Part shown: positions 25,074 through 43,371 of the stretch, piece after piece | Layout: each line of letters starts with the position of its first letter | Numbering within the stretch: the stretch's first letter is position 1 | Source of the DNA: Acidobacteriota bacterium | GTDB lineage: Bacteria; Acidobacteriota; UBA6911; RPQK01; JADFOI01 | NCBI GenBank assembly: GCA_036338435.1 | Contig: JAYZCG010000037.1 | Location: 6,179-70,178 of the forward strand | Reading direction: 5' to 3' | DNA: 64,000 nucleotides | Made by a program: the position numbers and the translations under genes | Notes under the pieces: generated by a model | What the model saw: the letters and a program-made list of their open reading frames with translations, nothing else | The model's database searches: none | What the model was told of the DNA's origin: nothing

Positions 25074-25531
25074 ATTTTCTAAAGCGAATTTTTTTGGTAG
25101 ATATTTTAAAGGGGATGGCGGTAACTTTTCGTTACACCTACAAGAGTGTCTACACGGAACAGTATCCCAAAGAGAAGCCTAAACTGGCCGGAAGGTATAA
25201 GGGGGCCCCACGCCTGAATAATGACCCTGAAACAGGAGAGACCCTTTGCATTGCCTGTGATCTTTGTGCTGAAATTTGTCCCGAAAATCTCATAGTGGTA
25301 GGCTCCCAGCGTGATCCGGAAAGTAGGAAGAAAGTGCTGACCCACTACACATTTGACACCTCACGATGTCTTTTTTGTGGGTTATGTCAGGAAGTGTGTC
25401 CCACGAATGCTGTCGAACTTACCCAGGACTTTGAATTAGCAACCTACAGTCGCAAGTCCATGGTATGGGACCGCAAGCGGTTGGAGAAGGGCTGGGATCG
25501 TATTGAATTTGGCAAGAATTACCATAAATAG
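25070..25531 (+). CDS. nuoI: NADH-quinone oxidoreductase subunit I
   Basis: Two 4Fe-4S ferredoxin motifs, [12 protein letters not shown] and [12 protein letters not shown]. Start at MNFLK shares ATGA with the nuoH stop. Confidence 0.92.
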
Positions 25532-25630
25532 GTTTTGACAGTATTTAAGTTGGAAAAAGACCATGATGTGAGGATCATCAATATAGATCCCACAATTATG
25601 GAAGTATGAACTAGAATCTATAACATAAGT

Positions 25631-26143
25631 ATGGAATCCATTCTTTTTTACATTTTGGCAGGGATATTGGTTGTTTTTGCCATTCTCACGGTGACGGCAC
25701 ACAATCCAGTACGAAGTGCTGTCTACCTGATCTCAGCCCTCTTGGCTACAGCAGGACTCTTCTTTTTGTTGGAAGCAGAATTTTTGGGGGCCGTCCAGAT
25801 TTTGGTGTATGTAGGGGGGATAATGGTCCTGTTCCTCTTTGTCATTATCCTGGTTAACGTGCGTGAGATGGAAGCGCAGCGAAGAGCAAGTCGACAGTGG
25901 AAAACTGCTGTGGTGTTGGGGGTGGTACTATCTTGTGAGTTCATTATCTTTGTGGTGCGAGGGGCTGATATCTTTTCAGCAGAAGCGATGAACTCATCTC
26001 TGGTCGTTGGGACGCAAACTCACAACACAGAATCAGTCGGTAGACTTCTTTATAGCACCTATCTTTTACCTTTTGAAATAGCTTCTATTTTGTTATTGGT
26101 GGCCATGGTGGGTGCTGTGGTCTTGACCATGAAGGAACACTAG
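25631..26143 (+). CDS. nuoJ: NADH-quinone oxidoreductase subunit J
   Basis: 170-aa ND6-like membrane protein in operon position. A 100-nt gap precedes it. Confidence 0.85.
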
Positions 26144-26148
26144 CAAGT

Positions 26149-26451
26149 ATGGTGGATATTGGGCACTATCTAATTTTAAGTACCGTTGTTTTCACTATCG
26201 GCGTGATCGGAGTGTTGACGAGACGCAATGTAATTATCATTTTGATGTCCATTGAGTTGATGCTTAACGCCGTCAACTTGAATCTGATTGCTTTTTCTGA
26301 CCACCTTCACAGTCTTTCGGGTCAAGTATTTGCAGTTTTTGTCATTACAGTGGCCGCTGCTGAGGCAGCCGTGGGGTTAGGTATTGTGATTGCGCTTTTC
26401 AGCAACAAAGAGACGGTCAATGTCGACGAAATAGATTTGATGAAAGGATAG
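26149..26451 (+). CDS. nuoK: NADH-quinone oxidoreductase subunit K
   Basis: 100-aa, 3-TM ND4L-like protein with a conserved Glu in TM2/3. Confidence 0.9.
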
Positions 26452-26454
26452 TGG

Positions 26455-28524
26455 ATGCTCGAATATCTATGGCTTATTCCCGTTCTGCCTCTCTTGGGGT
26501 TTGCCGTCAACGGGCTGGTAGGGCTTTGGAAAGTGTCCCGGACCGGGAAACCACAATCTAAGCCATTTGTTTATTCTGTAGCCTGTGGGAGTGTGTTTTT
26601 GGCTTTTTCTCTCGCAGTGGGATGTTTTTGGAGCCTAATCCAGCTCGATCCTCACGACCGGATTATCGAGCAAGACCTTTTTACCTGGATTACCGGGGGA
26701 GCAGTGCGAACTATGAGCGGTGATCTGGCCAACCTTCACATCAATTGGGGCATGCAGCTCGACCCCTTGTCTGCGGTGATGATTTTGGTGGTGACCGGGG
26801 TTGGATTTCTCATTCACGTGTATGCCATCGGCTACATGGCTGACGACGAAGAAGGATTTTATCGCTTTTTTTCTTATATGAACTTGTTCATGTTCATGAT
26901 GTTGACATTAGTTTTGTCCAACAATTTTCTGGTTATGTTCGTGGGATGGGAAGGGGTTGGTCTTAGTTCCTATCTTTTAATCGGCTATTACATTCACAAA
27001 AAGAGTGCTGGCGATGCCGCCAAGAAGGCATTTGTAGTAAATCGCATTGGTGATTTTGGTTTTATCATTGCCATCATGATGATTTTTTCCTATTTTGGCA
27101 CGGTAGATTTTACTGAAGTCTTTGAGGGTGTAGAGGCTATTTTTCCTACTCCGGAATTAATGTGGGGACCGCTCAGTTGGATCGCGTTACTCCTTTTTGT
27201 TGGCGCCATGGGGAAGAGTGCCCAGATCCCGCTCTATGTATGGTTGCCCGATGCCATGGAAGGCCCGACTCCGGTAAGTGCACTCATCCATGCCGCCACC
27301 ATGGTCACGGCTGGTGTTTACATGGTGGCACGCTCCAGTGCCATTTACAGTCGTGCTCCTGACGTACTTTTAATTGTGGCGGGCATTGGGATTTTTACAG
27401 CCCTTGTAGCCGCCACGATTGCCATGTTTCAACAGGACATAAAGAAGGTTTTGGCTTACTCCACTGTAAGCCAGCTAGGCTACATGTTTGCAGCCTTGGG
27501 TGTGGGTGCTGTTGCTGCTGGTGTTTTCCATCTCATGACCCATGCCTTTTTCAAAGCCCTTCTCTTTCTGGGATCCGGAAGTGTGATTGTTGCTCTGCAT
27601 CATGAGCAGGATATGAGAAAGATGGGGGGGCTCAAAAAATACCTTCCCACCACTTGGTGGACCATGGGAATCGCTACATTAGCTATTGCAGGTGTTCCAG
27701 GATTATCTGGCTTCTTTTCTAAGGACGAGATTTTGTGGCGATCCTTCAGTAATCCTCAAGGTCACATATTGATCTGGATAGTGGGGGTACTGGTGGCGGG
27801 GATGACTGCGTTTTATATGATGCGGATGATGTTCCTTACCTTCCATGGGGAGGAGCGGCTCTTGCCAAAGGTGGCTCATCACGTTCAGGAATCTCCCCTT
27901 GTGATGACCGTCCCATTGATGATTTTGGCTGTGGGATCAGCCATTGTAGGATTTTTAGGCCTGCCGGCTTGGTTGGGCCCGAACATATTCGAACATTTTC
28001 TGGAACCAGCCTTTGCAACCCATTATCAGGCTACTGAGGAAGTTCATCACTATGCCCACTCTACGGAAATTCTCTTAACCGTTTTTTCCGTGACCTTGGC
28101 AGCAATGGGGATTTATATTGCCTACTATTTCTTTATTCGGCACAAAGAGAAGTCAACTTGGTGGGTGGAAAAATTTCGCGGGGTTCACCAGCTGGTCTAC
28201 AACAAATACTACGTGGATGAGACCTACGATCTTTTGTTTGTCAACCGGGCCAAGGATACGGGACGATTCCTTTCTGCTTTTGATAGTAATGTCGTAGATG
28301 GGTTTGTCAATGGAAGTGCAACGATCACTCGGATTTCAGCTTGGATTTCAGGTCAGGCTGATATCCATATTGTAGATCGGATCGTCAATCTAATAGCCGA
28401 GATCTTTGAGTATTCGAGCTCTCTACTTCGCAAGGTCCAGACAGGGCTGGTGCAGCGGTATGCCCTCTTTTTCGTGATAGGCATCATTCTGGTGATCAGT
28501 CTTTATCTCTACTTAGGAGTTTAG
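26455..28524 (+). CDS. nuoL: NADH-quinone oxidoreductase subunit L
   Basis: 689-aa antiporter-like subunit with a C-terminal long helix region. Confidence 0.93.
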   Translation: MLEYLWLIPVLPLLGFAVNGLVGLWKVSRTGKPQSKPFVYSVACGSVFLAFSLAVGCFWSLIQLDPHDRIIEQDLFTWITGGAVRTMSGDLANLHINWGMQLDPLSAVMILVVTGVGFLIHVYAIGYMADDEEGFYRFFSYMNLFMFMMLTLVLSNNFLVMFVGWEGVGLSSYLLIGYYIHKKSAGDAAKKAFVVNRIGDFGFIIAIMMIFSYFGTVDFTEVFEGVEAIFPTPELMWGPLSWIALLLFVGAMGKSAQIPLYVWLPDAMEGPTPVSALIHAATMVTAGVYMVARSSAIYSRAPDVLLIVAGIGIFTALVAATIAMFQQDIKKVLAYSTVSQLGYMFAALGVGAVAAGVFHLMTHAFFKALLFLGSGSVIVALHHEQDMRKMGGLKKYLPTTWWTMGIATLAIAGVPGLSGFFSKDEILWRSFSNPQGHILIWIVGVLVAGMTAFYMMRMMFLTFHGEERLLPKVAHHVQESPLVMTVPLMILAVGSAIVGFLGLPAWLGPNIFEHFLEPAFATHYQATEEVHHYAHSTEILLTVFSVTLAAMGIYIAYYFFIRHKEKSTWWVEKFRGVHQLVYNKYYVDETYDLLFVNRAKDTGRFLSAFDSNVVDGFVNGSATITRISAWISGQADIHIVDRIVNLIAEIFEYSSSLLRKVQTGLVQRYALFFVIGIILVISLYLYLGV

Positions 28525-28527
28525 CCG

Positions 28528-30087
28528 ATGAGTTTTTTTATGGAAAACATTTTAACCATAGTGTGTTTTTTCCCGCTACTCGGAGTAGCACTCATTGTAG
28601 TGTGGCCCAAGGGAAAGGAACATGACCAAAGTATCAAGTGGATAGCCAATCTCGTGGCTCTCATTGGTTTCTTCATTTCGCTACCGCTGATAACTGAGTT
28701 CAACAATGTTCAGTACATCGACTCGGAAACCGGGATGAGGTTTGTGTTCAAAGCGGATTGGATTCCCACCATTGGGGCACAGTACTCTTTTGGTATTGAT
28801 GGAATCAGTATGTTACTGATTCTGTTGACAACACTTATGGGGTTTATTGCTATTCTTTCTTCCTGGACTGCCGTAACTGAACGGGTCCGGGAGTACTATT
28901 GTTATTTTCTATTGTTACAAGTAGGAATGCTCGGTGTTTTTATGGCACTGGACTTCTTTCTCTTCTACGTTTTTTGGGAAGTAATGTTGGTGCCCATGTA
29001 TTTCATCATTGGAGTATGGGGGGGACCCAGAAGACTTTATGCCGCGATCAAGTTCTTTCTTTACACTTTAGCTGGATCGGTTCTTCTTCTGCTTGGCATT
29101 CTAGCGCTTTATTTTTACCAGCACAGTGTAACCGGTGTCTGGTCCTTCGATGTATTGGCCATGCAACAGTTAAACATCCCCATGGGTCTCCAGACCTGGA
29201 TTTTTCTAGCTATGTTTTTTGGGTTTGCCATTAAGGTACCCATGTTTCCCTTTCACACTTGGCTTCCCGATGCACATGTAGAGGCTCCTACGGCTGGTTC
29301 TGTAATTCTGGCTGCCATCCTGCTAAAAATGGGAACCTATGGGTTTGTGCGCTTTAGCCTACCCATTCTTCCTGAAGCCACCATGTTTTTTCTCTACCCT
29401 TTGCTAGTTTTGTCGGTTATCGGAATCATCTATGGTGCTCTGGTGGCCATGATGCAAAAGGATATGAAGAAACTCGTGGCATATTCTTCGGTAAGTCACT
29501 TGGGGTTTTGCATGCTGGGAGTTTTTGTTGCTACCCCGGTGGCATTGGAAGGGGGCATCCTGCAAATGATAAACCATGGAGTTTCCACCGGAGCTCTTTT
29601 TCTGATTGTGGGTATCATTTATGAAAGGCGGCACACACGCATGATTGCCGATTTTGGAGGCCTTTCCCTTATCATGCCAGTTTACGCTACTGTTTTTCTG
29701 ATTATGACTCTTTCATCCATTGGCATGCCTACGCTGAACGGATTTATTGGGGAATTTATGGTTTTGCAAGGCGTTTTTGCTGATCCCACCTATAGGCTGT
29801 GGGCTGTATGGGGTGCGGTAGGCATAGTTTTAGGGGCAGCCTATATGTTGTGGCTCTACCAGCGGGTAATGTTCGGCAAGTTGGAGCATGAGGAGAACCG
29901 GAATCTTCCCGATCTTAATTGGCGTGAGATGGCAACGTTTGTTCCGCTGATTATCCTGGCGTTCTGGATCGGTCTTTACCCAAAGACTTTCTTAGATTAT
30001 CTGCATGAGCCGGTAAATCAAATCGTTGAGAGGGTACGTCCTAATGAATTTTCACCTTTGCCGGCACAGGCTTTCTTGAGGGAATAA
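28528..30087 (+). CDS. nuoM: NADH-quinone oxidoreductase subunit M
   Basis: 519-aa antiporter-like ND4 homolog. Confidence 0.93.
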   Translation: MSFFMENILTIVCFFPLLGVALIVVWPKGKEHDQSIKWIANLVALIGFFISLPLITEFNNVQYIDSETGMRFVFKADWIPTIGAQYSFGIDGISMLLILLTTLMGFIAILSSWTAVTERVREYYCYFLLLQVGMLGVFMALDFFLFYVFWEVMLVPMYFIIGVWGGPRRLYAAIKFFLYTLAGSVLLLLGILALYFYQHSVTGVWSFDVLAMQQLNIPMGLQTWIFLAMFFGFAIKVPMFPFHTWLPDAHVEAPTAGSVILAAILLKMGTYGFVRFSLPILPEATMFFLYPLLVLSVIGIIYGALVAMMQKDMKKLVAYSSVSHLGFCMLGVFVATPVALEGGILQMINHGVSTGALFLIVGIIYERRHTRMIADFGGLSLIMPVYATVFLIMTLSSIGMPTLNGFIGEFMVLQGVFADPTYRLWAVWGAVGIVLGAAYMLWLYQRVMFGKLEHEENRNLPDLNWREMATFVPLIILAFWIGLYPKTFLDYLHEPVNQIVERVRPNEFSPLPAQAFLRE

Positions 30088-30090
30088 TTA

Positions 30091-31593
30091 ATGTCCGAAC
30101 TTCCACAGATCACAAATCTTTTGGAGTTCTTTCTCTTTAACGGAAGGGCTATCGGTCCTCAGCTACATCTGATTCTCTGGGGATTGGGGTTGTTGTGTGT
30201 AGATTTCCTGATTCCCAAGAACAAAAGTCGTGTTGGGGCATTTTTTGCCACAGGCGGGATTGTGATGTCGGCAATTCATCTCTATAGACTTTGGGGTGAC
30301 ACCCAGCCTTCGGCTTTTTACGGGATGGTTACGCTCGATTCTTTTGCCATCTTCTTCAACATGCTCTTTCTGGTATCCGCTTTGTTAACAGTGGTGATGT
30401 CTTACCGGTACATGGAGGTGGAAGAGGAACAACGTACGGAATACTATGCATTAATTCTTTTTGCCACCTCCGGAATGATGTTTATGGCGGGTGCGATTGA
30501 TCTAATCAGTCTCTTTATTGGACTTGAACTGATGTCAATTGCTACATACATTTTGGTGGGATTTCTGCGGCGGAATAAACGATCTAATGAGGCTTCTATA
30601 AAGTACTTTCTATTGGGGGCTTTCTCAAGCGGTGTCATCTTGTATGGGATGTCTCTACTGTACGGACTAGGGGGTAGTACCAACTTAAGTGAAATTGCTT
30701 CACAGATCGCTGGGCTGCAGGATAATACACTCCTTTACTTGGCTACTTTTTTAATAATAGCGGGTCTGTGTTTTAAGATTGCTGCCGTTCCATTTCATAT
30801 GTGGGTTCCTGATGCATATGAAGGTGCACCAACTTCGATAACGGCGTTTATGTCGGTGGCTGTTAAAGCAGCAGCCTTTGCTATTTTCCTGCGCATTATC
30901 TTTGTGGTTTTTGCGGACTCGCGGGAGATGTACAGCTTTGTTTTGGCTGTGATTGCGATGATTACCATAACTTGGGGAAATGTGGCTGCCATAATCCAGC
31001 CAAATATAAAGCGCTTGCTGGCGTATTCTAGTATCGCCCATGCTGGATTCATTCTCATGGGGGTAGTAGTGGGAACCAGATCCGGAGTAACGGCTGTTGC
31101 TATCTATCTTTTGGCGTATACCTTCATGAATCTAGGTGCTTGGGCAGTAATGATTTTGCTGCGGCGCCAGGATATTTCAGGAGAAAGATTGGAAGATTTT
31201 AACGGTCTTTTTTTTAAGCACCCGGCCATTGCAATACTCATGTTGATATTTTTTCTTTCCCTGGCAGGGATTCCTCCCTTTGCCGGATTTGTCGCTAAGT
31301 ATTTTGTTTTTGCGTCAGTGATAGAAAGCATTTTTACAGAAGGCGGAGGTAATACTTCTATTTTGATATGGTTGGTTTTGGTGGCTGCTCTCAATGTAGT
31401 AGTTTCCCTGTACTACTACTTCCGCATTGTGGTGGCTATGTTTGTCAAGGAGGATTACTTGCCAGTTGGTGTGAGTTTCTCGGGAGGGCTAGTGTTAGTA
31501 TTGGTCATTACGGGCTCTCTAACGGTTCTGATCGGGATTTATCCACAGCCTTTTATTGACCTGGCTCGCGAGGCTAGTCAGTCCTTTCTTTGA
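30091..31593 (+). CDS. nuoN: NADH-quinone oxidoreductase subunit N
   Basis: 500-aa antiporter-like ND2 homolog. Last gene of the nuo operon. Confidence 0.92.
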   Translation: MSELPQITNLLEFFLFNGRAIGPQLHLILWGLGLLCVDFLIPKNKSRVGAFFATGGIVMSAIHLYRLWGDTQPSAFYGMVTLDSFAIFFNMLFLVSALLTVVMSYRYMEVEEEQRTEYYALILFATSGMMFMAGAIDLISLFIGLELMSIATYILVGFLRRNKRSNEASIKYFLLGAFSSGVILYGMSLLYGLGGSTNLSEIASQIAGLQDNTLLYLATFLIIAGLCFKIAAVPFHMWVPDAYEGAPTSITAFMSVAVKAAAFAIFLRIIFVVFADSREMYSFVLAVIAMITITWGNVAAIIQPNIKRLLAYSSIAHAGFILMGVVVGTRSGVTAVAIYLLAYTFMNLGAWAVMILLRRQDISGERLEDFNGLFFKHPAIAILMLIFFLSLAGIPPFAGFVAKYFVFASVIESIFTEGGGNTSILIWLVLVAALNVVVSLYYYFRIVVAMFVKEDYLPVGVSFSGGLVLVLVITGSLTVLIGIYPQPFIDLAREASQSFL

Positions 31594-31823: not shown

Positions 31824-32066
31824 ATGTCCGGTCGGCGCGACGAATTTCTTGCGAAATCTTTCCAATATATGCAAGACAGCATCCGTAGAGCAGGACCAGC
31901 GGTTTCCGCTGGGTACACTCTGGTAGGAGCAATTCTTTTGTTGGGTGGTGTCGGATATCTGATTGACTGGTGGTGGTTTAACAGCCCCTCCTGGTTTTTA
32001 GTGGGGGGATTAATGCTGGGTATTGTCATCGGGTTCTACGAACTGGCCAAAGCTGTCTTTAGATAA
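31824..32066 (+). CDS. atpZ: AtpZ/AtpR-family small membrane protein (ATPase_gene1)
   Basis: 80 aa. Basic N-terminus, then 2 TMs with the GYLIDWWW motif. Located immediately upstream of atpI. Confidence 0.7.
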   Translation: MSGRRDEFLAKSFQYMQDSIRRAGPAVSAGYTLVGAILLLGGVGYLIDWWWFNSPSWFLVGGLMLGIVIGFYELAKAVFR

Positions 32067-32428
32067 TGAATTTCTTGTATTGCATCGTCGTGTCGTGTTT
32101 GGGTTCCTGGGGACTTGTCTCATTGGTGGTTTTTCCTGATGTGTTGGTAGAGACATTCCTTGGCATGGTGGCCCCATTGCTGTTGGCTATCGTGACGGTG
32201 CTCCTGGTGGAAAGGACTTATTCTCGAGAACCAGCCAAGCTTACAGTGCGTATGACAAAGGCATTTTTGGGTAAGATGCTTTTCTATGGTATTTACATCT
32301 CACTGGTTTTAGGCGTTTTTCTATTTCAGGCAACACCATTTATCATCAGTTTCACTGTATATTTTTTGGGACTTCATCTGGCCGAGGCTCTACATTTCCG
32401 TGTTCTCTTCCAGACCTGTTCAGATTAG
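32066..32428 (+). CDS. atpI: ATP synthase protein I
   Basis: 120-aa, 4-TM protein preceding atpB. Confidence 0.65.
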   Translation: MNFLYCIVVSCLGSWGLVSLVVFPDVLVETFLGMVAPLLLAIVTVLLVERTYSREPAKLTVRMTKAFLGKMLFYGIYISLVLGVFLFQATPFIISFTVYFLGLHLAEALHFRVLFQTCSD

Positions 32429-32441
32429 GGATGCAATGATG

Positions 32442-33362
32442 AACATAGAGACAGTTGAGATGGTCCAACATACTGAGGGATTTGATGCGGGGACAATGAT
32501 TATTGAGCATATTGCCAATAGCTCCATCGATCATCCAATTATCCACTTGCCCCAGGTGCTTGGTATTGATTTTTCTGTCACAAAGCATGTCCTGATGTTG
32601 TGGGTTGTTGCAGCTTTTCTATTCGTCGTTATAACTTGGACAACCCGAAGATATCTGCGACAGGATCGACCGGTACCTACCGGGTTTATGAATGGCCTGG
32701 AAATGGTTGTGCAGGGTATTCGTGACTCTATCGTTCGTCCGAATGTGGGGGACAAGTTCGTGAATACCTGGACTCCTCTTGTACTGACATTTTTTGTTTT
32801 CATTCTGAGTGCCAACGCAGTTGGATTAATTCCCATTTTTGAAATCATTGGCCTTCTGGATCGTTTTGTTTTGCACACAGCTCATGGGTCTTTTATTAAC
32901 AGCGTGTTGCATGGAGGGACGACAATCACAGCCAACTTTAATGTCACGGCTGCCTTGGCCACGATCACTTTTTTTTCTATCATCATTGCGGGAACAAAAG
33001 CCCATGGGTTTCTCCAACATTGGAAGAATCTAGCCCCGGGTGGTCTTGCTTGGCCCATTTATATTATTTTAATTCCGATCGAAATTATGGGAATGCTAGT
33101 GAAGCCTTTTGCGTTAACTATGAGGTTGGCGGCTAACATGACAGGAGGGCATATAGCCATTCTTTCCATTCTTTCTTTTGTTTTTATATTCAGCGAGTTG
33201 TTTCAAACTGCTCTGGCCGGGGTGGGCGTTGGTCTATTCGTGTCGATTCCTTTGGCTGTAGCTATTTCCGCTTTGGAGATCATCGTTGTGTTGGTTCAGG
33301 CGTATGTCTTTACTCTTTTGACGGCTGTGTTTATCGGTATGGTAATTAACGTTCACCACTAA
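32442..33362 (+). CDS. atpB: F0F1 ATP synthase subunit a
   Basis: C-terminal LRLAANMTGGH contains the essential Arg of subunit a. Polytopic. Start placed at MMNIE. Confidence 0.9.
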   Translation, partial: NIETVEMVQHTEGFDAGTMIIEHIANSSIDHPIIHLPQVLGIDFSVTKHVLMLWVVAAFLFVVITWTTRRYLRQDRPVPTGFMNGLEMVVQGIRDSIVRPNVGDKFVNTWTPLVLTFFVFILSANAVGLIPIFEIIGLLDRFVLHTAHGSFINSVLHGGTTITANFNVTAALATITFFSIIIAGTKAHGFLQHWKNLAPGGLAWPIYIILIPIEIMGMLVKPFALTMRLAANMTGGHIAILSILSFVFIFSELFQTALAGVGVGLFVSIPLAVAISALEIIVVLVQAYVFTLLTAVFIGMVINVHH

Positions 33363-33386
33363 AATAGAAATTAGGAGGTTACCTTA

Positions 33387-33611
33387 ATGGAAGTTTTGCA
33401 TTATTTCGGTGCTGCTATAGGACTTGGTTTAATTGTGATCGGTGCTGGTCTGGGAATTGGTAGGTTTACCGCCGCCGCCGCTGAAAGTATTGCCCGTCAG
33501 CCTTCGGCCGCCGATAAGATTACCGGGGCTGTTAATTTGCCACTTTTTCTACTCGAAGGGGTCGCCATTTTAGCGGAGGTATTTGTTCTGTTGGTTGTCC
33601 TTATGAAGTGA
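33387..33611 (+). CDS. atpE: F0F1 ATP synthase subunit c
   Basis: 74-aa hairpin protein with an ion-binding Glu in LLEGVAIL. GGAGG RBS. Confidence 0.93.
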   Translation: MEVLHYFGAAIGLGLIVIGAGLGIGRFTAAAAESIARQPSAADKITGAVNLPLFLLEGVAILAEVFVLLVVLMK

Positions 33612-33662
33612 CCGATACTAGTTATGATGAACTGTTTTTAAATAGATCGGACGGAGAGTGTT

Positions 33663-34166
33663 ATGGATAATCCTCTGGTTCAGCTAGATCCGGGGTTGTT
33701 TATTTGGACAATTTTAACTTTTCTAGTGCTCCTGGCGTTGTTGGGTAAATTTGCCTGGAAACCCCTTCTTGCAGCGTTGGATAGGCGTCATGAGATGATC
33801 AATGATGCCTTGGACAATGCGGAAAAGGCGAAACAGGAGTTAGGACAACTTCAGCAAGATTCAGCAAAGATTGTCTCCGAAGCCAGAACTGAGGCCCAGG
33901 AAATCGTGGGGAAGAGCAGAGTTGAGGCAGAAAAGCTAAAAGGGGACATGGTGGAAAAGGCGAGAGAGGAAGCTGATTTCATCGTGCGTAATGCGGAAAA
34001 GAAAATTGAATTGGAGATGGCAAAGGCTCTCGCAGAACTTCGTAACGAAGTAGCGGACTTGTCACTTCTGGTTGCCTCCAAGCTGATTCAAAAGAATCTT
34101 TCAAAAGAAGAGAATCAAGTACTCATCGAGGAGTCTCTCAAGAAGATCGAAGCCTATCGAACTTAA
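33663..34166 (+). CDS. atpF: F0F1 ATP synthase subunit b
   Basis: N-terminal TM followed by a long charged helix. 167 aa. Confidence 0.88.
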   Translation: MDNPLVQLDPGLFIWTILTFLVLLALLGKFAWKPLLAALDRRHEMINDALDNAEKAKQELGQLQQDSAKIVSEARTEAQEIVGKSRVEAEKLKGDMVEKAREEADFIVRNAEKKIELEMAKALAELRNEVADLSLLVASKLIQKNLSKEENQVLIEESLKKIEAYRT

Positions 34167-34285: not shown

Positions 34286-34723
34286 ATGCCTCGTCTAAAG
34301 TTTGTCGTTGCTGGAGGGCTTATACTTGGGGCCATAACCTATCTGATGTTCAGTGGGATCAGCGATTCTATGGTCTATTACTATACGGTTTCCGAGGCTT
34401 TGGAATTGGCCCAGGAGGATGCCGGAAAAGGAATTCGTGTCAGTGGTTATGTCTCTTCTGGCACTATTGAAAGAGAAGAAAGTGAATCTAGGGTGGGGTT
34501 TTTAGTCTATGATAGGGATGGTGCACATACTTTACCTGTTGTCTATCAGGGTATTATCCCTGACACTTTCAAAGATGATGCTGAGGTGGTGGTGGAAGGC
34601 AACTACGACCTAGAGGAGGAAGTCTTTCATGCAAATGTGCTACTGGCTAAGTGTCCTTCCAAGTATGAAGCTATGGGCGACGAACATCCCGAAGACATTT
34701 CCTTGGCTGAAGAAGCCAATTGA
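34286..34723 (+). CDS. ccmE: cytochrome c maturation heme chaperone CcmE, CxxxY variant
   Basis: N-terminal TM and OB-fold region. The C-terminal LAKCPSKYE replaces the canonical LAKHDEXY: Cys at 34652-34654 and Tyr at 34664-34666. Confidence 0.85.
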   Translation: MPRLKFVVAGGLILGAITYLMFSGISDSMVYYYTVSEALELAQEDAGKGIRVSGYVSSGTIEREESESRVGFLVYDRDGAHTLPVVYQGIIPDTFKDDAEVVVEGNYDLEEEVFHANVLLAKCPSKYEAMGDEHPEDISLAEEAN

Positions 34724-34732
34724 GTAAAGTCG

Positions 34733-36715
34733 ATGGTCAATCTGGGCCATTATTGTCTGATAGCATCTTTCGTTGTTTGTAGCTATGGGATCCTTGCGTC
34801 TGTCTGGGGGGGCATCAAGAACCACCTTCCCTCCGTCCGTAGTGCAGAAAACAGTGTAATTGCCAATTTTGCTTTCATAGTAGTAGCTTCTATCTGTCTC
34901 TGGTATCTGCTCCTTACGGATCAGTTCCAAGTTGAATATGTAGCTGGCTACAGTGCAACCGATATTCCAAATCGGTTTAAATTTACTGCCTTTTGGGGGG
35001 GTCAAAAAGGTAGTCTCCTTCTCTGGTCTTTGGTGTTGTCACTGTTTTCGTTCGTTCTTGTAGTTCAGAATAGGTACCGCTATCGAGATTTGATGCCTTA
35101 TGCCACGGCCGTTCTCTTAGGCATAAATTTATTTTTTGTGCTTGTATTGAATTTTGCCACCAATCCTTTTGAGGTTATGGATTTTGCACCGGCTGACGGG
35201 CAGGGACTCAACCCATTGCTTCAAAACTGGTACATGATTATTCACCCCCCGAGTTTGTTTTTAGGCTATGTTGGCGTGGCTGTTCCCTTTGCTTTGACCA
35301 TGGGCGCCCTTATCGTTGGGCGTTTGGATACCTCATGGGTGCGTACCACGCGTCGTTGGGCTCTTGTGGCCTGGATTTTCCTCACCTTTGGGCTGACGTT
35401 GGGTGGTAGATGGGCTTACGAAGAACTGGGATGGGGAGGCTATTGGGCATGGGATCCGGTTGAAAACGCATCATTGATGCCCTGGCTTGTTACTACGGCA
35501 TTTCTCCATTCTGTAATGATCACAGAGAAAAAGGGGATGCTCAAGGTCTGGAATTTCACGCTTGTTTTACTGGCCTTCGAACTTTCCATCTTCGGGACTT
35601 TCATTACCCGTAGCGGAATAGTTTCCTCGGTTCATTCCTTTGCTCTGTCAAATCTCGGGCCGTTTTTTTTAGTTTTTCTGATCACAAGTACACTTTTTGG
35701 TCTTTTCTGGATCTTCTATCGTTCATCGGAGTTGCAGAGCGAACAGAGGATGAGGTCTTTCCTTTCCAGAGAGGCATCCTTTCTACTCAACAACCTTTTA
35801 TTTGTAGGCATTTGCTTCACTGTTTTTTGTGGAACGGTATTTCCAATTATTTCGGAGTTGGTCACAGGTGAGAAGATTTCAGTCTCGATACCGTTTTTCA
35901 ATACCGTCAACATGCCATTGGGTCTAGCACTATTGATTTTAACCGGAATATGCCCACTCATAGCTTGGCGAAAAGCCTCATGGAAAAATTTTCGGAGAAA
36001 CTTTGTAGTCCCTCTGACGATAGGTCTAGCGACCGGTGGCATTCTTTTCATGTTGGGTGTACGCGAGTTCATTCCATTAATATTCTTCTGTTCCTGTGGA
36101 TTTGTCACCACGACAATGGTGTATGAATTTTATAAAGGTGCACGTGCTCGCCAAACCATTAGACCTTCGGGTTTTCTAGTGGCTTTGACCGACCTTACCC
36201 TAATGAACAAACGCCGTTACGGGGGCTTTATTATTCACGTAGGGGCAGTTCTTGTATTTGCTGGCATTGTTGGTAGTTCTTTCTTCAAGAGTGAGGGGCT
36301 CTTCACTGTGGTTGCTGGAGAGGAGTTTACACTAGGCGATTATACCGGCCGATTTTTAGATATAACTTCAAGAAGTGATCCAGAGAAAGATGTGGTGTCA
36401 GCACGTTTAGAGATCTTGAAGGGAGGAGTGAGCAAAGGCCAATTGACCCCGGAAAAACACTTCCATCACAAAAATGAGCAACCAATGACGGAGGTGAAGA
36501 TCCACTCGACCTTAATGGAGGATCTTTATGTAGTTTTGTCGGGTTGGGATGATCAGCAACGGGTTACCTTTAATGTTTTTATCAATCCGATGGTTCAGTG
36601 GATCTGGATTGGCATTGGTGTCATGGTGCTCGGGGGTGTATTTGTTCTCTTGCCCAACAAGAAGGTGGTCGTTTTAAAGAGATCTATGCAGGAGGTCGGA
36701 GATGGGGGTGCTTAA
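34733..36715 (+). CDS. ccmF: cytochrome c-type biogenesis protein CcmF (heme lyase subunit)
   Basis: 660 aa. WGGYWAWDPVENASLMPWL is the WWD domain. Multiple TM helices. Confidence 0.93.
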   Translation: MVNLGHYCLIASFVVCSYGILASVWGGIKNHLPSVRSAENSVIANFAFIVVASICLWYLLLTDQFQVEYVAGYSATDIPNRFKFTAFWGGQKGSLLLWSLVLSLFSFVLVVQNRYRYRDLMPYATAVLLGINLFFVLVLNFATNPFEVMDFAPADGQGLNPLLQNWYMIIHPPSLFLGYVGVAVPFALTMGALIVGRLDTSWVRTTRRWALVAWIFLTFGLTLGGRWAYEELGWGGYWAWDPVENASLMPWLVTTAFLHSVMITEKKGMLKVWNFTLVLLAFELSIFGTFITRSGIVSSVHSFALSNLGPFFLVFLITSTLFGLFWIFYRSSELQSEQRMRSFLSREASFLLNNLLFVGICFTVFCGTVFPIISELVTGEKISVSIPFFNTVNMPLGLALLILTGICPLIAWRKASWKNFRRNFVVPLTIGLATGGILFMLGVREFIPLIFFCSCGFVTTTMVYEFYKGARARQTIRPSGFLVALTDLTLMNKRRYGGFIIHVGAVLVFAGIVGSSFFKSEGLFTVVAGEEFTLGDYTGRFLDITSRSDPEKDVVSARLEILKGGVSKGQLTPEKHFHHKNEQPMTEVKIHSTLMEDLYVVLSGWDDQQRVTFNVFINPMVQWIWIGIGVMVLGGVFVLLPNKKVVVLKRSMQEVGDGGA

Positions 36716-37163
36716 CGCGTCTTTTCTGGGACTCGTTTTGTCTAGTTCCTTGATCTGGGCTCAGGTTTCTCCTAGGGAGGAAATTGTCAATAGGGCCATC
36801 GAAAATCTGATGTGCACTTGTGGGTGTCCACATCTGATTGGTCAATGTGGGGATGAATGTGGTGTGGCTCCTCAATTGATTAATGAAATCTCAGCTCTCG
36901 TGGATAGAGGAAGTACGGAAGACGAAGTTTATGCTGCATTTGAAGCCAAATACGGACTGGTCGTTCTTGCCGTTCCCAGGATGGAGGGGTTTAATATGTT
37001 GCTCTGGATATTACCCTTCCTAGGTATATTTATAGGAGCCGTCGTCGTGTTCGTAGTATTCAAGCGCTTGAAGCCTAGTGGTAGAGATGATGGAAGGCAG
37101 AGAGGGGAAACACACATTAGTAGTGAATACCGTGAGCTCATCGACAGGGAAGTGGGGCGTTAG
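36702..37163 (+). CDS. ccmH: cytochrome c-type biogenesis protein CcmH/NrfF family
   Basis: Signal peptide, redox-active Cys cluster (LMCTCGCPHLIGQC) and a C-terminal TM anchor. Confidence 0.75.
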   Translation: MGVLNASFLGLVLSSSLIWAQVSPREEIVNRAIENLMCTCGCPHLIGQCGDECGVAPQLINEISALVDRGSTEDEVYAAFEAKYGLVVLAVPRMEGFNMLLWILPFLGIFIGAVVVFVVFKRLKPSGRDDGRQRGETHISSEYRELIDREVGR

Positions 37164-37475
37164 ATGGCTTTGTTGATTGCTCCAATCTTGTTGATTACAG
37201 CAGTTTTGTATATTGCCTATCCTCTTCTCAAGGAGGAGAGTGAACCTGAAGATCAGATGGCCGACGAAAGGAATGCCGAAGACCAAGCCCTTCAGAATAG
37301 GAGTGATATTATCGCTGTCCTAAAGGACATTGATATGGATTATCGCATGGGTAAACTGTCTAAACACGACTATGAAACTCTGAAGGGTGATTTTGAGAAC
37401 CGTGCTGTAGAGGCATTTCAGCGACTCAAATCGTTTCAGACAAAGGGTGGTCAATCCGAGAAGATAAAGTCCTGA
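37164..37475 (+). CDS. short CcmI/CycH-like membrane protein (TM + charged helix, no TPR region)
   Basis: N-terminal TM followed by DIIAVLKDIDMDYRMGKLSKHDYETLKGDFENR. This resembles the segment after the TM in the CcmI portion of E. coli CcmH. Confidence 0.5.
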   Translation: MALLIAPILLITAVLYIAYPLLKEESEPEDQMADERNAEDQALQNRSDIIAVLKDIDMDYRMGKLSKHDYETLKGDFENRAVEAFQRLKSFQTKGGQSEKIKS

Positions 37476-37477
37476 AA

Positions 37478-38206
37478 ATGTTGGATTCCCCTATTTCTCT
37501 TTTACAACTTTCTCGAGTCACTAAAACATTCGGGCCGGTCAAAGCCGTCTTGAATGTTGACTTAGAAATCTGTGTGGGAGACTTCTTAGCTATTTTTGGA
37601 CCCAATGGAGCAGGCAAAACGACCCTGTTAAAAGTAATAGCTGGGTTGACTCAACCAACCAGTGGAACGGTTCAATTTGCATTACAGAACTACAAAATTG
37701 GACGAGAAAAGGTAGGTTACGTCTCCCACCAGAGTTTTCTCTACAATGAACTTACGGGAACTGAAAACCTCAAGTTTTATGGACACTTATATGGGGTTAG
37801 TGATACCACTGGACGGGCCAACACGATGCTTGACAAGATGGGGCTTCGGGATGCTTGTAGTCAGAGGGTTCGTGGATATTCACGGGGTATGAAACAGAGG
37901 CTGACTCTGGCCCGTGCGCTTTTAAACGAACCTGATCTCCTCTTACTTGACGAGCCTTATACAGGGTTGGACCACCATGGCAGTCAACTTCTCACTGAAG
38001 TGTTATACGGTCTTAAGGAAGAAGGACGAACTATTTTGCTCATTACACATAATCTGCGTGCAGGACTGGAATTGTGTAGTAGAGTTGTCATTCAGAATAG
38101 AGGGGAAATAGTCTTTCAGGGATTGCGTCAGCAAGTTGATGTGGCTGAGTTTGAGAAGCTCTACTTTCAAGTGGTCGAAGATAGCAAAGGGCCACGAAGG
38201 ACATAA
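37478..38206 (+). CDS. ccmA: heme exporter ATP-binding protein CcmA
   Basis: GPNGAGKTTLL Walker A, ABC signature YSRGMKQRL, Walker B LLLLDEP. Confidence 0.88.
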   Translation: MLDSPISLLQLSRVTKTFGPVKAVLNVDLEICVGDFLAIFGPNGAGKTTLLKVIAGLTQPTSGTVQFALQNYKIGREKVGYVSHQSFLYNELTGTENLKFYGHLYGVSDTTGRANTMLDKMGLRDACSQRVRGYSRGMKQRLTLARALLNEPDLLLLDEPYTGLDHHGSQLLTEVLYGLKEEGRTILLITHNLRAGLELCSRVVIQNRGEIVFQGLRQQVDVAEFEKLYFQVVEDSKGPRRT

Positions 38207-38217: not shown

Positions 38218-38895
38218 ATGAATCAAGCTATTCTCACTTGGATATTGGCAGAAAAGGATCTCAAGGTAGAATGTCGGTCACCTCAAGCTTTTTTGACCAC
38301 GATTTTCTTTGCTGTACTAATCTTAGTGGTTTTTAATTTCGCCTTCGATCCCGGTAGTCAGGCTACCCGGGAAGCGACCCCAGGAATCCTATGGGTGGCA
38401 TTACTTTTTCCTGGCATTATTCAACTAAATCGTTCTTTTCAGAGCGAGATGGAAGAGGGCACTCTGTATGGCTTGACTTTATCACCGATCGATCGCGGAC
38501 TCTTGTATATGGGCAAACTTCTTGCCAACTGGGCTTTTTTAGTAGTGGTGGATCTTTTGGTTCTCGTGGTATTTATCATTTTCTACAATTTCAGTTTCTC
38601 AGTTCAGATGCTTTGGGTGGCTCTGATTATCGTTTTGGCAAGTGTCGGTTTCACAGCTGTTGGCACCATTTTTGCCGCAATGCTTTGTAGCATGCGTACC
38701 AGGGAAGTGTTGCTGCCCATTTTACTCTTTCCAATAATCATCCCTATAATTCTAGCAGCGGTCAATGGGACCCAGGAGGTGCTTATCTTGGGAGAGACTG
38801 AGTTTCTTAAGAGATGGCTTCAGTTATTGATTTCATTCGATGTTATTTTCGTAGCTACAGGATTTTTACTATTTGACTATGTCGTTGCAGATTGA
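38218..38895 (+). CDS. ccmB: heme exporter protein CcmB
   Basis: 225-aa, 6-TM permease in ccmA-B-C order. Confidence 0.85.
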   Translation: MNQAILTWILAEKDLKVECRSPQAFLTTIFFAVLILVVFNFAFDPGSQATREATPGILWVALLFPGIIQLNRSFQSEMEEGTLYGLTLSPIDRGLLYMGKLLANWAFLVVVDLLVLVVFIIFYNFSFSVQMLWVALIIVLASVGFTAVGTIFAAMLCSMRTREVLLPILLFPIIIPIILAAVNGTQEVLILGETEFLKRWLQLLISFDVIFVATGFLLFDYVVAD

Positions 38896-39616
38896 TCAGC
38901 ATTCTCGGAAACTTGCCAGGCGGTATATCCAAGTGGCTACTGGACTTCTGATTCCGCTATATGTGTTGATTGCAGTAGCTCTCTATGGGATATTTATTTA
39001 TGCTCCCACCGAGAGGGAGATGGGCGATGTGCAACGGATCTTTTACTTCCATATGGGCACTGCCTGGAATGCTTTCCTCACTTTCTTCGGTGTTTTTGTG
39101 GCTGGGATAGCCTATCTTGTCACTCGCAAAGCATGGTGGGATAGTCTTGCAGCTGCGTGTGCTGAAATAGGTATGGTTTTCACCTCAATTGTTATGATAA
39201 CCGGGTCGATCTGGGCCAAGCCAATCTGGAATACCTGGTGGGCATGGGGTGATCCTCGGTTGATGACCACAATGGTTTTGTGGCTCATTTATGCGGCCTA
39301 CTTCCTTCTTCGGTCTAGCTTCCCGGAGGGTGATAAAAAGTATAAATATTGTGCTGTGTTCGGGATCATTGGTTTTCTAGATGTCCCGCTTGTTTGGATG
39401 TCTATCCGTTGGTGGAGAACCATCCATCCGGTTGTGATAACAGGGGATGGAGCAGAACTGGCGTCGGAGATGATACATGTATTGATTATCTCTTTGATCG
39501 CAACGACCGTTCTCTGCATCACGTTGGTAGCATTGCGAATGGCTATGCGTTTAAATGCTAGTGTGGTTGATGAGATCGTTCAGAAATTTGAACGGCGGGG
39601 GGTTACGAGATCATGA
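38873..39616 (+). CDS. ccmC: heme exporter protein CcmC
   Basis: WNTWWAWGDPRL WWD motif, with conserved His residues. Confidence 0.9.
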   Translation: MTMSLQIDQHSRKLARRYIQVATGLLIPLYVLIAVALYGIFIYAPTEREMGDVQRIFYFHMGTAWNAFLTFFGVFVAGIAYLVTRKAWWDSLAAACAEIGMVFTSIVMITGSIWAKPIWNTWWAWGDPRLMTTMVLWLIYAAYFLLRSSFPEGDKKYKYCAVFGIIGFLDVPLVWMSIRWWRTIHPVVITGDGAELASEMIHVLIISLIATTVLCITLVALRMAMRLNASVVDEIVQKFERRGVTRS

Positions 39617-39747
39617 ACTTTCTTTTTGCAGGGTATCTTGCGGTGTGGACAATTCTATTCGTTTATCTTGCTTACCTTATGAAAAGTCAAAAGCAGGTTA
39701 ATGCTAAGTTAGAGAAACTCTTAGACAAACTGGACAATGAACATTGA
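39613..39747 (+). CDS. ccmD: heme exporter protein CcmD (44 aa)
   Basis: MNFLFAGYLAVWTILFVYLAYLMKSQKQVNAKLEKLLDKLDNEH, found manually. ATGA overlap with the ccmC stop. Typical single-TM CcmD. Below the ORF-track size cutoff. Confidence 0.7.
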   Translation: MNFLFAGYLAVWTILFVYLAYLMKSQKQVNAKLEKLLDKLDNEH

Positions 39748-39977: not shown

Positions 39978-41960
39978 GTGAGTAAAATTATTGGAATTGA
40001 CTTGGGAACAACCAACTCGGTGGTTGCCTTGATGGAGGGTGGAGAACCAACAGTAATTACTAATACTGAAGGTGGACGCCTTACTCCTTCGATTGTAGCC
40101 GTTACTAATAATGATGAGCGATTAGTGGGGCAGGTGGCCAAGCGCCAAGCGGTAACAAATCCTGACAATACGGTCTACTCGATCAAACGTTTCATGGGTC
40201 GAAAATACGGTGAGGTAAAGGAAGAGATTACGATGGTGCCCTATCAAATTGAAAAGTCTTCCAATGGAGATGCATGGGTTAAGTTTGGTGGCAAAGACGT
40301 TTCTCCTCCAGAAATTGCAGCTATGATTCTGCAAAAGTTAAAGGCCGCTGCGGAAGAGTATCTAGGCGATACGGTCACTCAGGCGGTGATTACGGTTCCG
40401 GCTTATTTTAATGATTCTCAACGTCAAGCTACTAAGGATGCAGGAAAGATCGCAGGGCTTGAGGTTCTAAGACTAGTGAATGAACCAACGGCAGCCGCTT
40501 TGGCTTACGGGTTGGACACGAACAAAGATCAGACAATTGCTGTATTTGATTTTGGTGGAGGAACCTTTGATATCTCAATTCTTGAGATAGGCGATGAAGT
40601 GGTTGAGGTGAAGTCAACCAATGGCGATACTCATCTGGGTGGCGACAATCTAGATCAGCAAGTGATCGATTGGATTGCCGAAGAATTTCAAAAGGATCAG
40701 GGGATCGATCTTTCACAGGATAAGATGGCCTTGCAGCGTCTCAGAGAAGCCGCGGAAAAGGCTAAGATGGAACTGTCGACTACCCAAGAAACAGATATAA
40801 ACCTACCTTTCGTAACGGCTGATGCAAGTGGACCAAAACATCTGAATATGAAACTTACAAGGGCCAAGTTTGAACAGCTCGTAGAAGATGTTCTTCAGCG
40901 GACTTTGCCTCCCTGCAAACAGGCCCTTGAAGATGCGGGATTAGAGCCGGGAGAGATCGATGAAGTAGTCCTTGTGGGCGGGTCTACTCGTATACCTCGA
41001 GTTCAAGAAATAATTAAAGATTTCTTTGGTCGGGAGCCTCATAAAGGAGTAAATCTCGATGAAGTGGTTGCAGTTGGAGCCGCAGTCCAGGCGGGTATTT
41101 TGGGTGGGGATGTAAAGGATTTACTCCTATTGGATGTAACACCACTTTCCCTAGGGATTGAAACTCTTGGAGGGGTAGATACGATATTAATATCTAAAAA
41201 CTCTACGATTCCAACAAAGAAAACGCAGGTTTTTTCGACAGCAGCGGACAATCAAACTTCTGTGGAGATCCATGTGTTGCAGGGAGAACGTCCAATGGCA
41301 AAGGATAATAAATCATTGGGTACATTCCACCTTACTGACATCCCTTCGGCACCCCGCGGGCTCCCACAAATTGAGGTGACCTTTGATATGGATGCAAACA
41401 GCATTCTCAAGGTTAGCGCAAAAGATCTTGGAACTGGAAAAGAACAGGACATTACTATTACCAGTTCTAGTGGCTTGGACGAAGAAGAAATCAAGAAAAT
41501 GGTTGAGGAAGGGGAGGAGAATGCTGCAGACGACCTTCTCAAGAAGGAAGAGATTGAAGCCCGAAATCAAGCTGACAACTTAGTGTATAACACTGAAAAA
41601 CTACTCAATGAAAATCGTGACAAAATCAGTGAAGCTGATGCCAAAACGATAGAGGATGCCCTGGCTGAAACAAAAAAAGCGGTCGAGGAAGGTGGTGTCG
41701 AGCAAATCAATCAAGCCACTGAAAAGTTAACTCAGGCATCCCATCGGCTGGCAGAGGCTATGTACCAGACCACCCAGGAGCAGAGTGGCGGAGATCCATC
41801 GCAGGCTTCTACGGAAACGACTGCCGACGAGAAACAGGGAGATGCTGACGTTATTGATGCCGAGTATGTCGATGTCGATGCGGATGACGCGAAGGATGCG
41901 GATGACGCGAAGGATGCGGATGACTCGAATGATGCGGATGACTCGAAGGATGGGGAATAA
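39978..41960 (+). CDS. dnaK: molecular chaperone DnaK
   Basis: [21 protein letters not shown] and full Hsp70 sequence. GTG start with an AGGAGG RBS. Acidic repetitive C-terminal tail. Confidence 0.96.
41877..41948 (+). repeat. 4 x 18-bp in-frame tandem repeat (gatgcggatgacgcgaag / ...tcgaat / ...tcgaag) encoding (DADDAK)n in DnaK tail
   Basis: Direct reading of 41877-41948. Units 1 and 2 are identical; units 3 and 4 differ at 2-3 nt. Confidence 0.9.
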
Positions 41961-42093: not shown

Positions 42094-42561
42094 TTAAGAT
42101 CCAGACAGGGTTGATTGAGTATTTCTCTCTGCTTTTTTCAGGCTATGTCGAATTCTTTTGTAAATATTCCTCAGCTTGGACTGATAGATTCTGTGGGGAT
42201 GATTCTCGTCGTGAAGGAGCGTTTTAATCTGCTTTAGACTTCGTTCCAATTCTGGCACTACAAGAGTGGTGTGGGTGGGATCATAAGGAGTGCAAATAGA
42301 AGGCATTCCCAGTTCCATAAAGACCTTTAAATAACGGGCAGTACGCATATCAGGGCAGGTGATTCTTCTGTGAGCGGCTTTGAGTTCATAGCCCAGAAAA
42401 GTATCAACAATTTGCGGTTTGCATTTACGTCCTGGTAGGACCACCACTCGTGTTTTGAGGGGCAGTACTTCGAGGGCGTAGATATCACTCAGTTTCTTGA
42501 TTTCTTGCTGGATAGTTGTGTTAGCACTTACCACTTGCATTGTTTTAATCCTGGGAATCAT
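42094..42561 (-). CDS. hypothetical protein (~155 aa)
   Basis: ORF 42094-42744. The 5' part overlaps the divergent DedA gene start, so the start is placed at the internal Met (MIPRIKTMQVV). I recognise no family. Confidence 0.4.
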   Translation of the reverse strand: MIPRIKTMQVVSANTTIQQEIKKLSDIYALEVLPLKTRVVVLPGRKCKPQIVDTFLGYELKAAHRRITCPDMRTARYLKVFMELGMPSICTPYDPTHTTLVVPELERSLKQIKTLLHDENHPHRIYQSKLRNIYKRIRHSLKKAERNTQSTLSGS

Positions 42562-42720
42562 ACCTGAGTTTGTTCTTCTGTGCTTTCGTACGTTTTTGCT
42601 GCAGTGATTTGAGCTACCAGATTGTATTTCCCCCATCCTGGAACATTTTCCAGTAATCCTATCTCCACGTTGTGGGGAAGGGGAATATGGTACGATGGGG
42701 GATTCTAGATAAGTAATGCA

Positions 42721-43371
42721 ATGCTCCTCATGACCACGGAACAATTCTGGGCTTACTTTGAAGTTTTAATCAGACACACGTATGAATTCATTGAAGGTCT
42801 GGGAGGGATAGGTCTGTTCGTTATTGCTCTCGCAGATTCTTCATTTTTGTCCTTGCCGGAAGGAAATGATGTGCTGATTGTTGTGCTTTCCACGGGGGGG
42901 ACATGGGGGTTGATGGCTTACTATGTTGTTATGACTACGGCCGGTTCCGTTTGTGGATGTAGCATTCTTTACTTGGGCGGATATCGAGGCGGGAAGTTTC
43001 TGAAGAAACGCCTAAAAGGGGGGATGGCAGAAGATATGAAACGTCTCTATAGACGTTGGGGAATGTGGGCTATCTTGATCCCCAGCATTTTACCTCCTCC
43101 CACACCGTTTAAGATCTTTGTGCTCTCTGCTGGATTGTTTCGGGTACCTTTCTCCAAGTTTCTACTCTCTGTTGTAGTTGGTAGGAGCATACGATATTTC
43201 ACATGGGGAATTCTGGCCGTACTATACGGAGAAGTGATTAAAAGATTCATCGAAGGGAATTTACGTGTAGTAGGAACTGTTATTTTTGCTTGTTTGACCA
43301 TCATTGGTGTTAGTTATGCGATAAAGTTGATTCGAGAAAAAAAGAAATTACCTCAGCACGAAGTAACATGA
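42721..43371 (+). CDS. DedA/YqaA (SNARE-associated, TVP38/TMEM64) family membrane protein
   Basis: 216 aa. GIGLFVIALADSSFLSLPEGNDVLIVVL and GRSIRYFTWG are typical of the YqaA/DedA family. Confidence 0.75.
   Translation: MLLMTTEQFWAYFEVLIRHTYEFIEGLGGIGLFVIALADSSFLSLPEGNDVLIVVLSTGGTWGLMAYYVVMTTAGSVCGCSILYLGGYRGGKFLKKRLKGGMAEDMKRLYRRWGMWAILIPSILPPPTPFKIFVLSAGLFRVPFSKFLLSVVVGRSIRYFTWGILAVLYGEVIKRFIEGNLRVVGTVIFACLTIIGVSYAIKLIREKKKLPQHEVT

Follow-up and report, generated by a model that had tools for sequence, protein, structure and literature searches.

Gene content of the locus

The window, by which we mean the whole 64-kb stretch of DNA analysed here, is ordinary chromosomal DNA that carries dxr, cdsA, uppS, truA, ruvC, grpE, aroK, aroA, aroC, uvrB, def, fmt, valS and nadC among other genes. 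Within it lies a compact ccm operon in the order ccmE-F-H-(CcmI-N-like)-A-B-C-D (Table 1), which directly follows the nuo genes and the F0 genes atpZ/I-B-E-F and directly precedes dnaK. Successive ccm genes overlap by up to 23 nt or are separated by no more than 11 nt, ccmD overlapping the stop codon of ccmC by 4 nt, and these tight junctions fit a single translationally coupled operon; scans for promoter and terminator consensus sequences gave results at the level of the shuffled background and were uninformative as to where the ccm operon begins and ends.

The surroundings of the operon have some features of their own. ccmE starts 119 nt after the F0 genes, which form a split atp operon, and further upstream the stop codon of nuoD overlaps the start of nuoH, with no nuoEFG between the two; complex I is therefore of the 11-subunit type, its electron-input module being either missing or encoded elsewhere. 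On the other side, dnaK encodes a protein with an unusual acidic repeat tail at its C-terminus. Four putative ORFs of the window yielded no Pfam match at an E-value threshold of 1e-4 or, for the 216-aa ORF, of 0.01.

Table 1. Features discussed in the text; positions are those of the window unless preceded by the handle of a related locus
Feature	Position	Strand	Remarks
ORF without Pfam match	7654-9237	-	527 aa, putative
ORF without Pfam match	9298-9672	+	124 aa, putative
ORF without Pfam match	18460-18843	-	127 aa, putative
Complex I cluster	21217-31593		nuoA-B-C-D-H-I-J-(K)-L-M-N; no nuoE, F, G
Putative nuoK	~26143-26455		part of the complex I cluster
Split atp operon	31824-34166		only atpZ/I-like, atpB (a), atpE (c), atpF (b); no F1 genes here
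ccmE	34286-34723	+	145 aa, ATG start; membrane-anchored periplasmic heme chaperone, Cys type (predicted); PF03100
Cys123 codon TGT	34652-34654	+	predicted covalent heme-attachment residue; E. coli His130 position
Tyr127 codon TAT	34664-34666	+	Y of CxxxY; opposite Tyr of E. coli HDENY
His134 of CcmE	34685-34687		His at Cys+11, 'EHP' in acidic tail
ccmF	34733-36715	+	660 aa; heme lyase/holocytochrome c synthetase subunit; PF16327 208 bits, PF01578 128 bits
ccmH-family gene	36702-37163	+	153 aa; PF03918 57.6 bits (cutoff 25)
Five-Cys motif of CcmH-family protein	36813-36860	+	C38-T-C40-G-C42-x6-C49-x3-C53, replaces LRCxxC
103-aa ORF, short CcmI-N-like	37164-37475	+	TIGR03142 20.9 bits, E 3.5e-4, below cutoff 29.3
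ccmA	37478-38206	+	ABC ATPase of heme-handling CcmABCD; TIGR01189 137.4 bits (cutoff 131.6); PF00005
ccmB	38218-38895	+	ABC membrane subunit; PF03379 119.2 bits
ccmC	38873-39616	+	WWD-domain protein, presents heme to CcmE; TIGR01191 119.6 bits, below cutoff
ccmD	39613-39747	+	44 aa, one TM helix; TIGR04391 CcmD_alt_fam 41.5 bits (cutoff 24)
DnaK C-terminus	41870-41960		acidic repeat tail
ORF without Pfam match	42094-42744	-	216 aa, putative
Second CcmE-like ORF	L048:13521-13907	+	128 aa; Chloroflexota MAG
~380-400 aa gene of related loci	L085:6260-7429; L086:6075-7256; L087:5825-7000; L088:6011-7189; L089:5912-7129; L090:6033-7163; L048:12388-13524		

A cysteine in the heme-binding position of CcmE

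The product of ccmE scores 100.5 bits against the Pfam family PF03100 (CcmE), whose gathering score is 24.6. Its hydrophobic segment comprises residues 4-26, and an AlphaFold2 model (pLDDT 79) consists of an N-terminal helix (residues 2-28) and a beta-barrel (50-121), for which the best Foldseek matches are all CcmE structures, namely 8ce8_E, 1sr3, 1j6q/1lm0 and 2kct, the last of these superposing with an rmsd of 1.4 A over 77 columns at a sequence identity of only ~35%. Hydrophobicity, model and fold search together give the architecture of the CcmE family, i.e. an N-terminal TM anchor followed by a periplasmic OB-fold barrel. None of the NCBIfam CcmE equivalog cutoffs is reached by the protein (92.5 against 126 in the best case), which marks it as divergent from these curated, mostly proteobacterial models.

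A preliminary description of this gene had reported CxxxY in place of the HxxxY motif and had proposed an alignment with the E. coli and Desulfovibrio proteins as a check. Both points are borne out: HMMER alignments place Cys123, which is encoded by TGT and is the sole Cys of the protein, in the context LLAKCPSKYEA (LAKCPSKYE in the preliminary description) and at the position equivalent to E. coli His130. In particular, when the protein is aligned by HMMER with solved CcmE chains, its 'lakCpskY' lies opposite 'lakHdenY' of E. coli (8ce8_E, 1sr3_A), and Cys123 lies likewise opposite the Cys of D. vulgaris CcmE in 'mtkCp..' (2kct_A). MAFFT puts the Cys of the window in the same column as the His of E. 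coli CcmE, and the HMMER alignment to the solved chains does not depend on the E. coli sequence used there.

The column that holds a His in canonical System I is therefore occupied by Cys in the window, and the motif, C123-P-S-K-Y127, directly follows the last barrel strand: in the AlphaFold2 model Cys123 stands two residues past the end of that strand (residue 121) and opens a low-confidence tail. Cys123 is invariant in three alignments (A2, A3 and A6); Tyr127 is invariant in A3 and A6 and nearly so in A2.

These features make the window CcmE a member of an already described Cys-type variant of System I, termed System I* (Allen 2006, Goddard 2010, Stevens 2011). As in the System I* protein of Desulfovibrio desulfuricans and D. 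vulgaris (2KCT), a Cys of the C-P-x-x-Y/CPSKY type stands at the His130 position directly after the OB-fold barrel. With E. coli CcmE (1SR3; 8CE8 chain E) the protein shares its family, the membrane anchor, the OB fold, the position of the reactive residue in the tail and the frame L-A-K-x-x-x-x-Y, but it has Cys for His130, PSK for DEN, and a partner CcmH without LRCxxC. His-type and Cys-type CcmE are not interchangeable, since E. coli CcmE H130C, as stated in the passage of PMC9084895 that cites earlier work on it, retains heme binding yet is unable to hand the heme over.

One difference from Desulfovibrio CcmE is a conserved His at Cys+11 in the acidic tail of the clade to which the window protein belongs. 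This residue, His134 in the window, is conserved in 106 of 118 close acidobacterial CcmE sequences, is found in just 8 of 145 broader Cys-type representatives (27 of those 145 have a His somewhere in the 20 residues around the motif), and could act as an additional heme ligand specific to this clade.

Partners of CcmE in the operon

CcmABCD, CcmF and CcmH are the partners that the window has in common with the System I of E. coli. CcmF matches its counterpart from T. thermophilus (6zmq_A) with an E-value of 1.8e-107, the two having the same WWD core, GWGGYWAWDPVENAS, and the His residues of HPP, FLHS, SVHSFA and IIHVG lying opposite histidines of 6zmq_A. CcmC, in turn, matches E. coli CcmC (7f02_C, E 1.4e-21) with its WWD motif WNTWWAWGDPRL aligned, and retains the equivalents of the heme-ligand histidines, His60 in FYFHMG and His184 in WWRTIHP. 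With these motifs and histidines kept, the apparatus for charging CcmE with heme and for discharging it looks intact, and the WWD motifs and His ligands of CcmABC(D) and CcmF appear to be of the functional type that System I* calls for. No ORF with CxxCH was found anywhere in the 64-kb window, nor was a thioredoxin-like CcmG, a CcdA or a DsbD among its scanned ORFs; hence the cytochrome substrates, and a thiol-reducing branch if there is one, must be encoded outside the window.

The same ccm gene order recurs in many genomes. For 69 of the 80 genomes with Cys-type CcmE that were fetched, at least 3.5 kb of downstream sequence was at hand, and in these the region downstream of ccmE contains ccmF in 61 cases, a CcmH-family gene in 46 and a homolog of the 103-aa ORF in 55, 13 of the latter being without CcmH.

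The protein encoded by this 103-aa ORF begins with its only TM helix and also contains a conserved helical stretch, LKDIxMDYRMGKLS or, in a longer rendering, LKDIExDYRMGKLSxEDY. TIGR03142, the model of the CcmI N-terminal domain, is matched by 24 of 30 family members, the best of them with an E-value of 6.1e-9. Full CcmI consists of an N-terminal membrane domain and a periplasmic TPR region; the window protein, with a single TM helix and no TPR region, is best regarded as a putative partial homolog of CcmI and not as full CcmI. Distant relatives bear C-terminal zinc ribbons, thereby suggesting that the C-terminal part of the family is cytoplasmic.

Proposed role and alternative readings

Taken together, homology and gene context make it very probable that ccmE encodes the heme chaperone of a Cys-type System I* operon on the chromosome of an uncultured Acidobacteriota, and that it works as follows. 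CcmC would hold heme b at the periplasmic face by means of its WWD motif and two His ligands, and the thiol of Cys123, at the start of the flexible tail of CcmE, would react with a vinyl group of the heme and so form a covalent, presumably thioether-linked, holo-CcmE with Tyr127 near the heme iron. ATP hydrolysis by CcmAB, with CcmD, would then release holo-CcmE, which would dock on CcmF; there CcmF, the five-Cys CcmH described below and the CcmI-like protein would transfer the heme to the CxxCH motifs of apocytochromes encoded elsewhere. We infer covalent attachment via Cys123, the thioether chemistry and its reversal all by homology.

One might object that Cys123 need not bind heme covalently at all and could serve as an axial heme ligand or as a redox thiol only. 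The thioether bond to CcmE is indeed hard to break, which is chemically puzzling and an acknowledged open problem (PMC3601427, section 8). Covalent, Cys-dependent heme binding has, however, been reported for the homologs of Desulfovibrio and Methanosarcina (PMC3601427; PMC9084895), whose motif and position are identical to those of the window protein, and we consider the non-covalent role highly improbable. For Desulfovibrio, the review's treatment of System I* further states that the operon matures cytochromes c in E. coli (PMC3601427); in M. acetivorans, whose CcmABCEF likewise includes a CXXXY CcmE, it is C120 of this motif that is needed for heme attachment (PMC9084895).

The cluster could alternatively be viewed as a dedicated lyase of the Nrf type (NrfE/NrfF/NrfG-like) whose target would be an unusual heme motif, CxxCK for instance. 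As a rule, genes for Nrf lyases are found together with nrfA and come without a ccmE and ccmABCD of their own; here, ccmE and ccmABCD share the operon of CcmF, no nrfA was found among the scanned ORFs nearby, and no nearby ORF has CxxCK or CxxCH. The similarity that invites this view is that CcmF scores almost as well against the NrfE model (449.8 bits) as against the CcmF/NrfE subfamily model (460.9 bits), both values being below cutoff, and that the CcmH-like protein matches a single NCBIfam model, NrfF, with 27 bits where the cutoff is 159. All Nrf scores being far below their cutoffs, and ccmE and ccmABCD being in the operon, we rejected a dedicated Nrf lyase as having very little chance of being correct.

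A further idea is that ccmE of the window is a non-functional or neofunctionalised paralog and that a working chaperone, possibly of the His type, is encoded elsewhere. The 64 kb of the window are all that we see of the genome, so that a second ccmE may exist outside it, and CcmE-like paralogs do occur, one related locus (L048) having a second CcmE-like ORF; but ccmE heads a complete and tightly packed ccm operon in an arrangement that is conserved across phyla, and its sequence is strongly constrained (33 invariant columns among 35 sequences at 57-85% identity). With the operon intact and the sequence conserved, this reading is hardly credible. The view that the gene is a normal ccmE of the His type, altered by a mistake of sequencing or assembly, can be dismissed, its probability being negligible: the change from CAY to TGT requires two substitutions, the residues that follow are also unlike the His type (PSK instead of DEN), LAKCPSKY is present in 118 of the 120 closest homologs (57-99% identity), and the identical 145-aa protein was called on 10 independently assembled contigs, the four shown being from four different samples.

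The two exceptions among these 120 homologs look truncated (P0042, with 138 aa, matches 72% of the query only), and the named members of the set are Acidobacteriota MAGs. On the longest of the contigs with the identical protein, ccmE has the same atpE-atpF-ccmE-ccmF-ccmH-orf103-ccmA neighbourhood. The Cys of CcmE is, as far as sequence comparison goes, an ancient and conserved trait of the lineage, and neither a recent substitution nor an error.

As to the paralog in L048, a Chloroflexota MAG, the ORF lies in the same gene string as a Cys-type ccmE-F-H and its product ends in '...SLCAVCH*', which is a c-type heme-binding CxxCH motif at the place usually taken by C/HxxxY. It is the one such CxxCH-ended second CcmE-like ORF in the 80 loci.

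Distribution of Cys-type CcmE

When 1.84 billion representatives were searched exhaustively with HMMER, 3368 relatives were retrieved, and among the best 150 of their 50%-identity cluster representatives 146 have Cys at the motif column, the four exceptions looking like fragments. CPSKY, the motif of the window and the majority motif of System I* CcmE (Stevens 2011; PMC3601427, section 8), accounts for 106 of 152 aligned sequences and is followed by CPSKF, CASKY and CPSRY; the Tyr of the motif is replaced by Phe in ~12% of the broad representatives. When one genome per GTDB species is considered, a relative is present in at least 578 species genomes from at least 8 phyla, which include Acidobacteriota, Chloroflexota, Nitrospirota, Desulfobacterota, Deferribacterota, Gemmatimonadota, Latescibacterota and Elusimicrobiota. 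The best matches among those listed are Acidobacteriota MAGs, with the isolate BS1bin.18 at 85% identity, and Desulfobulbus, other 'Deltaproteobacteria' and Deferribacterales also figure among the matches listed.

Cys-type CcmE is therefore not rare and prevails in a large part of the sequence space of the family. The preliminary description had assigned CxxxY CcmE to archaea and a few bacteria; the occurrence in both is right, but 'few' has to be given up in the light of the above counts. It had further proposed the Cys as a phylogenetic marker, a use for which a trait so widespread is weakly suited. The synteny nuo-atpF0-ccm-dnaK is a sharper marker of the lineage than the Cys of CcmE: of the 66 related loci whose upstream sequence is long enough, 33 have one or more F0 atp genes no further than 4 kb upstream of ccmE, and all 33 are of the acidobacterial type (L001-L054), many of them with nuoM/N upstream and dnaK downstream.

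What these findings mean is that an uncultured Acidobacteriota lineage joins the many bacteria that mature c-type cytochromes by way of a System I* chaperone, and that the flagged Cys adds little to this picture. The groups named in the 2011 review are delta-proteobacteria, Chloroflexi and Firmicutes, Acidobacteriota not being among them (PMC3601427), and in the searchable literature a search for descriptions of ccm genes in Acidobacteria yielded that review at most.

The preliminary description had also announced a variant System I pathway, and this stands in the form of System I*, though not in that of its streamlined archetype without CcmH, as genes for a CcmH-family and a CcmI-N-like protein are present. 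The original definition of System I* had CcmH absent, and the window has a PF03918 gene; about one third of System I* bacteria have CcmH, however, and its absence is thus not characteristic (PMC3601427). In the window ccmE lies upstream of ccmF and ccmABCD, which is also the case in Deferribacterales loci of the order E-F-A-B-C-D. The experimentally tested Desulfovibrio operon is described in the review's account of it as being without CcmH and CcmG (PMC3601427), unlike the window, which has a five-Cys CcmH and the CcmI-N-like protein between ccmF and ccmA. The archaeal Ccm system is without CcmD, CcmH and CcmI; the window, in contrast, has a CcmD of the alternative family, a CcmH-family protein and the CcmI-N-like protein.

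A CcmH-family protein with five cysteines

The CcmE Cys being already known, the CcmH-family protein is the sole mildly novel lead to emerge from this locus. It is laid out as a signal or anchor segment, a periplasmic helical domain and a C-terminal TM helix, with a hydrophobic segment at residues 96-125. A search of the single sequence against PDB sequences gave no match, and a profile was needed: that of its clade retrieves 2kw0 (E. coli) with an E-value of 7e-6 and 2hl7 (P. aeruginosa) with one of 4.7e-4. A structural model of modest confidence (pLDDT 70) finds 2hl7 by Foldseek (E 1.5e-4, TM 0.77) and then 2kw0, these two being its only significant fold matches. The protein thus resembles 2HL7 and 2KW0 in belonging to PF03918, in its helical periplasmic fold, in the first active-site Cys and in the C-terminal TM helix.

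It differs from both in its redox motif. Where canonical CcmH has LRCxxC, the window protein reads LMCTCGC...C...C, so that the C-x-x-C pair gives way to C-x-C-G-C and two more Cys. Its first Cys lies opposite the leading Cys of LRCPKC in E. coli, while G41, flanked by Cys on both sides, stands opposite the second Cys of the canonical pair. G41 and all five Cys are conserved without exception in an alignment that covers Acidobacteriota, Chloroflexota, Nitrospirota, 'Deltaproteobacteria' and Gemmatimonadota.

The five-Cys motif is present in 126 of 129 collected homologs (a profile search gave 739 relatives), and it is this five-Cys form of CcmH with which Cys-type CcmE is usually paired. Among 50 CcmH-family neighbours of Cys-type CcmE, 46 have the five Cys, two have LRCPVC, both of them in Gemmatimonadota, and two have CYAC and one further Cys. 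Conversely, when six distant five-Cys CcmH were looked up, five were found near a ccmE, in every case of the Cys type (CPSKY in four, CPSRY in one), and no five-Cys CcmH was seen beside a His-type CcmE in the small sample of loci examined. Shared ancestry of the whole operon would yield the same pattern of pairing.

Tentatively, and with the reservation that we think it on the whole doubtful, we suggest that five-Cys CcmH (C-x-C-G-C-x6/7-C-x1-4-C) is a distinct subfamily that co-evolved with Cys-type CcmE, and that the additional thiols, or else a metal or a cluster that they bind, might resolve the stable thioether between the CcmE Cys and heme or might handle apocytochrome thiols without CcmG. 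If this were true, part of System I* would be a heme-ligation machine with a mechanism of its own, as opposed to a trimmed System I. The consistent pairing of Cys-type CcmE with both the five-Cys CcmH and the short CcmI-N-like protein could help to explain how thioether-linked heme is released from CcmE. We found no description of a multi-Cys CcmH in the searchable literature, which is no proof that it is undescribed.

In one locus (L089, logan SRR26074222_170357), ccmF, ccmC, ccmD and a ccmH of the five-Cys type are surrounded by genes of heme biosynthesis, namely those for ALAD and GSA aminotransferase, a siroheme-synthase-like gene and two radical-SAM/SPASM genes, with no ccmE within 10 kb. 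In other phyla, moreover, a conserved gene of ~380-400 aa lies between the CcmI-N-like gene and ccmA (Table 1), a place at which the operon of the window has none. Its product gave a weak CarboxypepD_reg match in one case, the copy in L048 has a signal peptide and a C-terminal TM helix, and the gene may encode an additional Ccm accessory protein.
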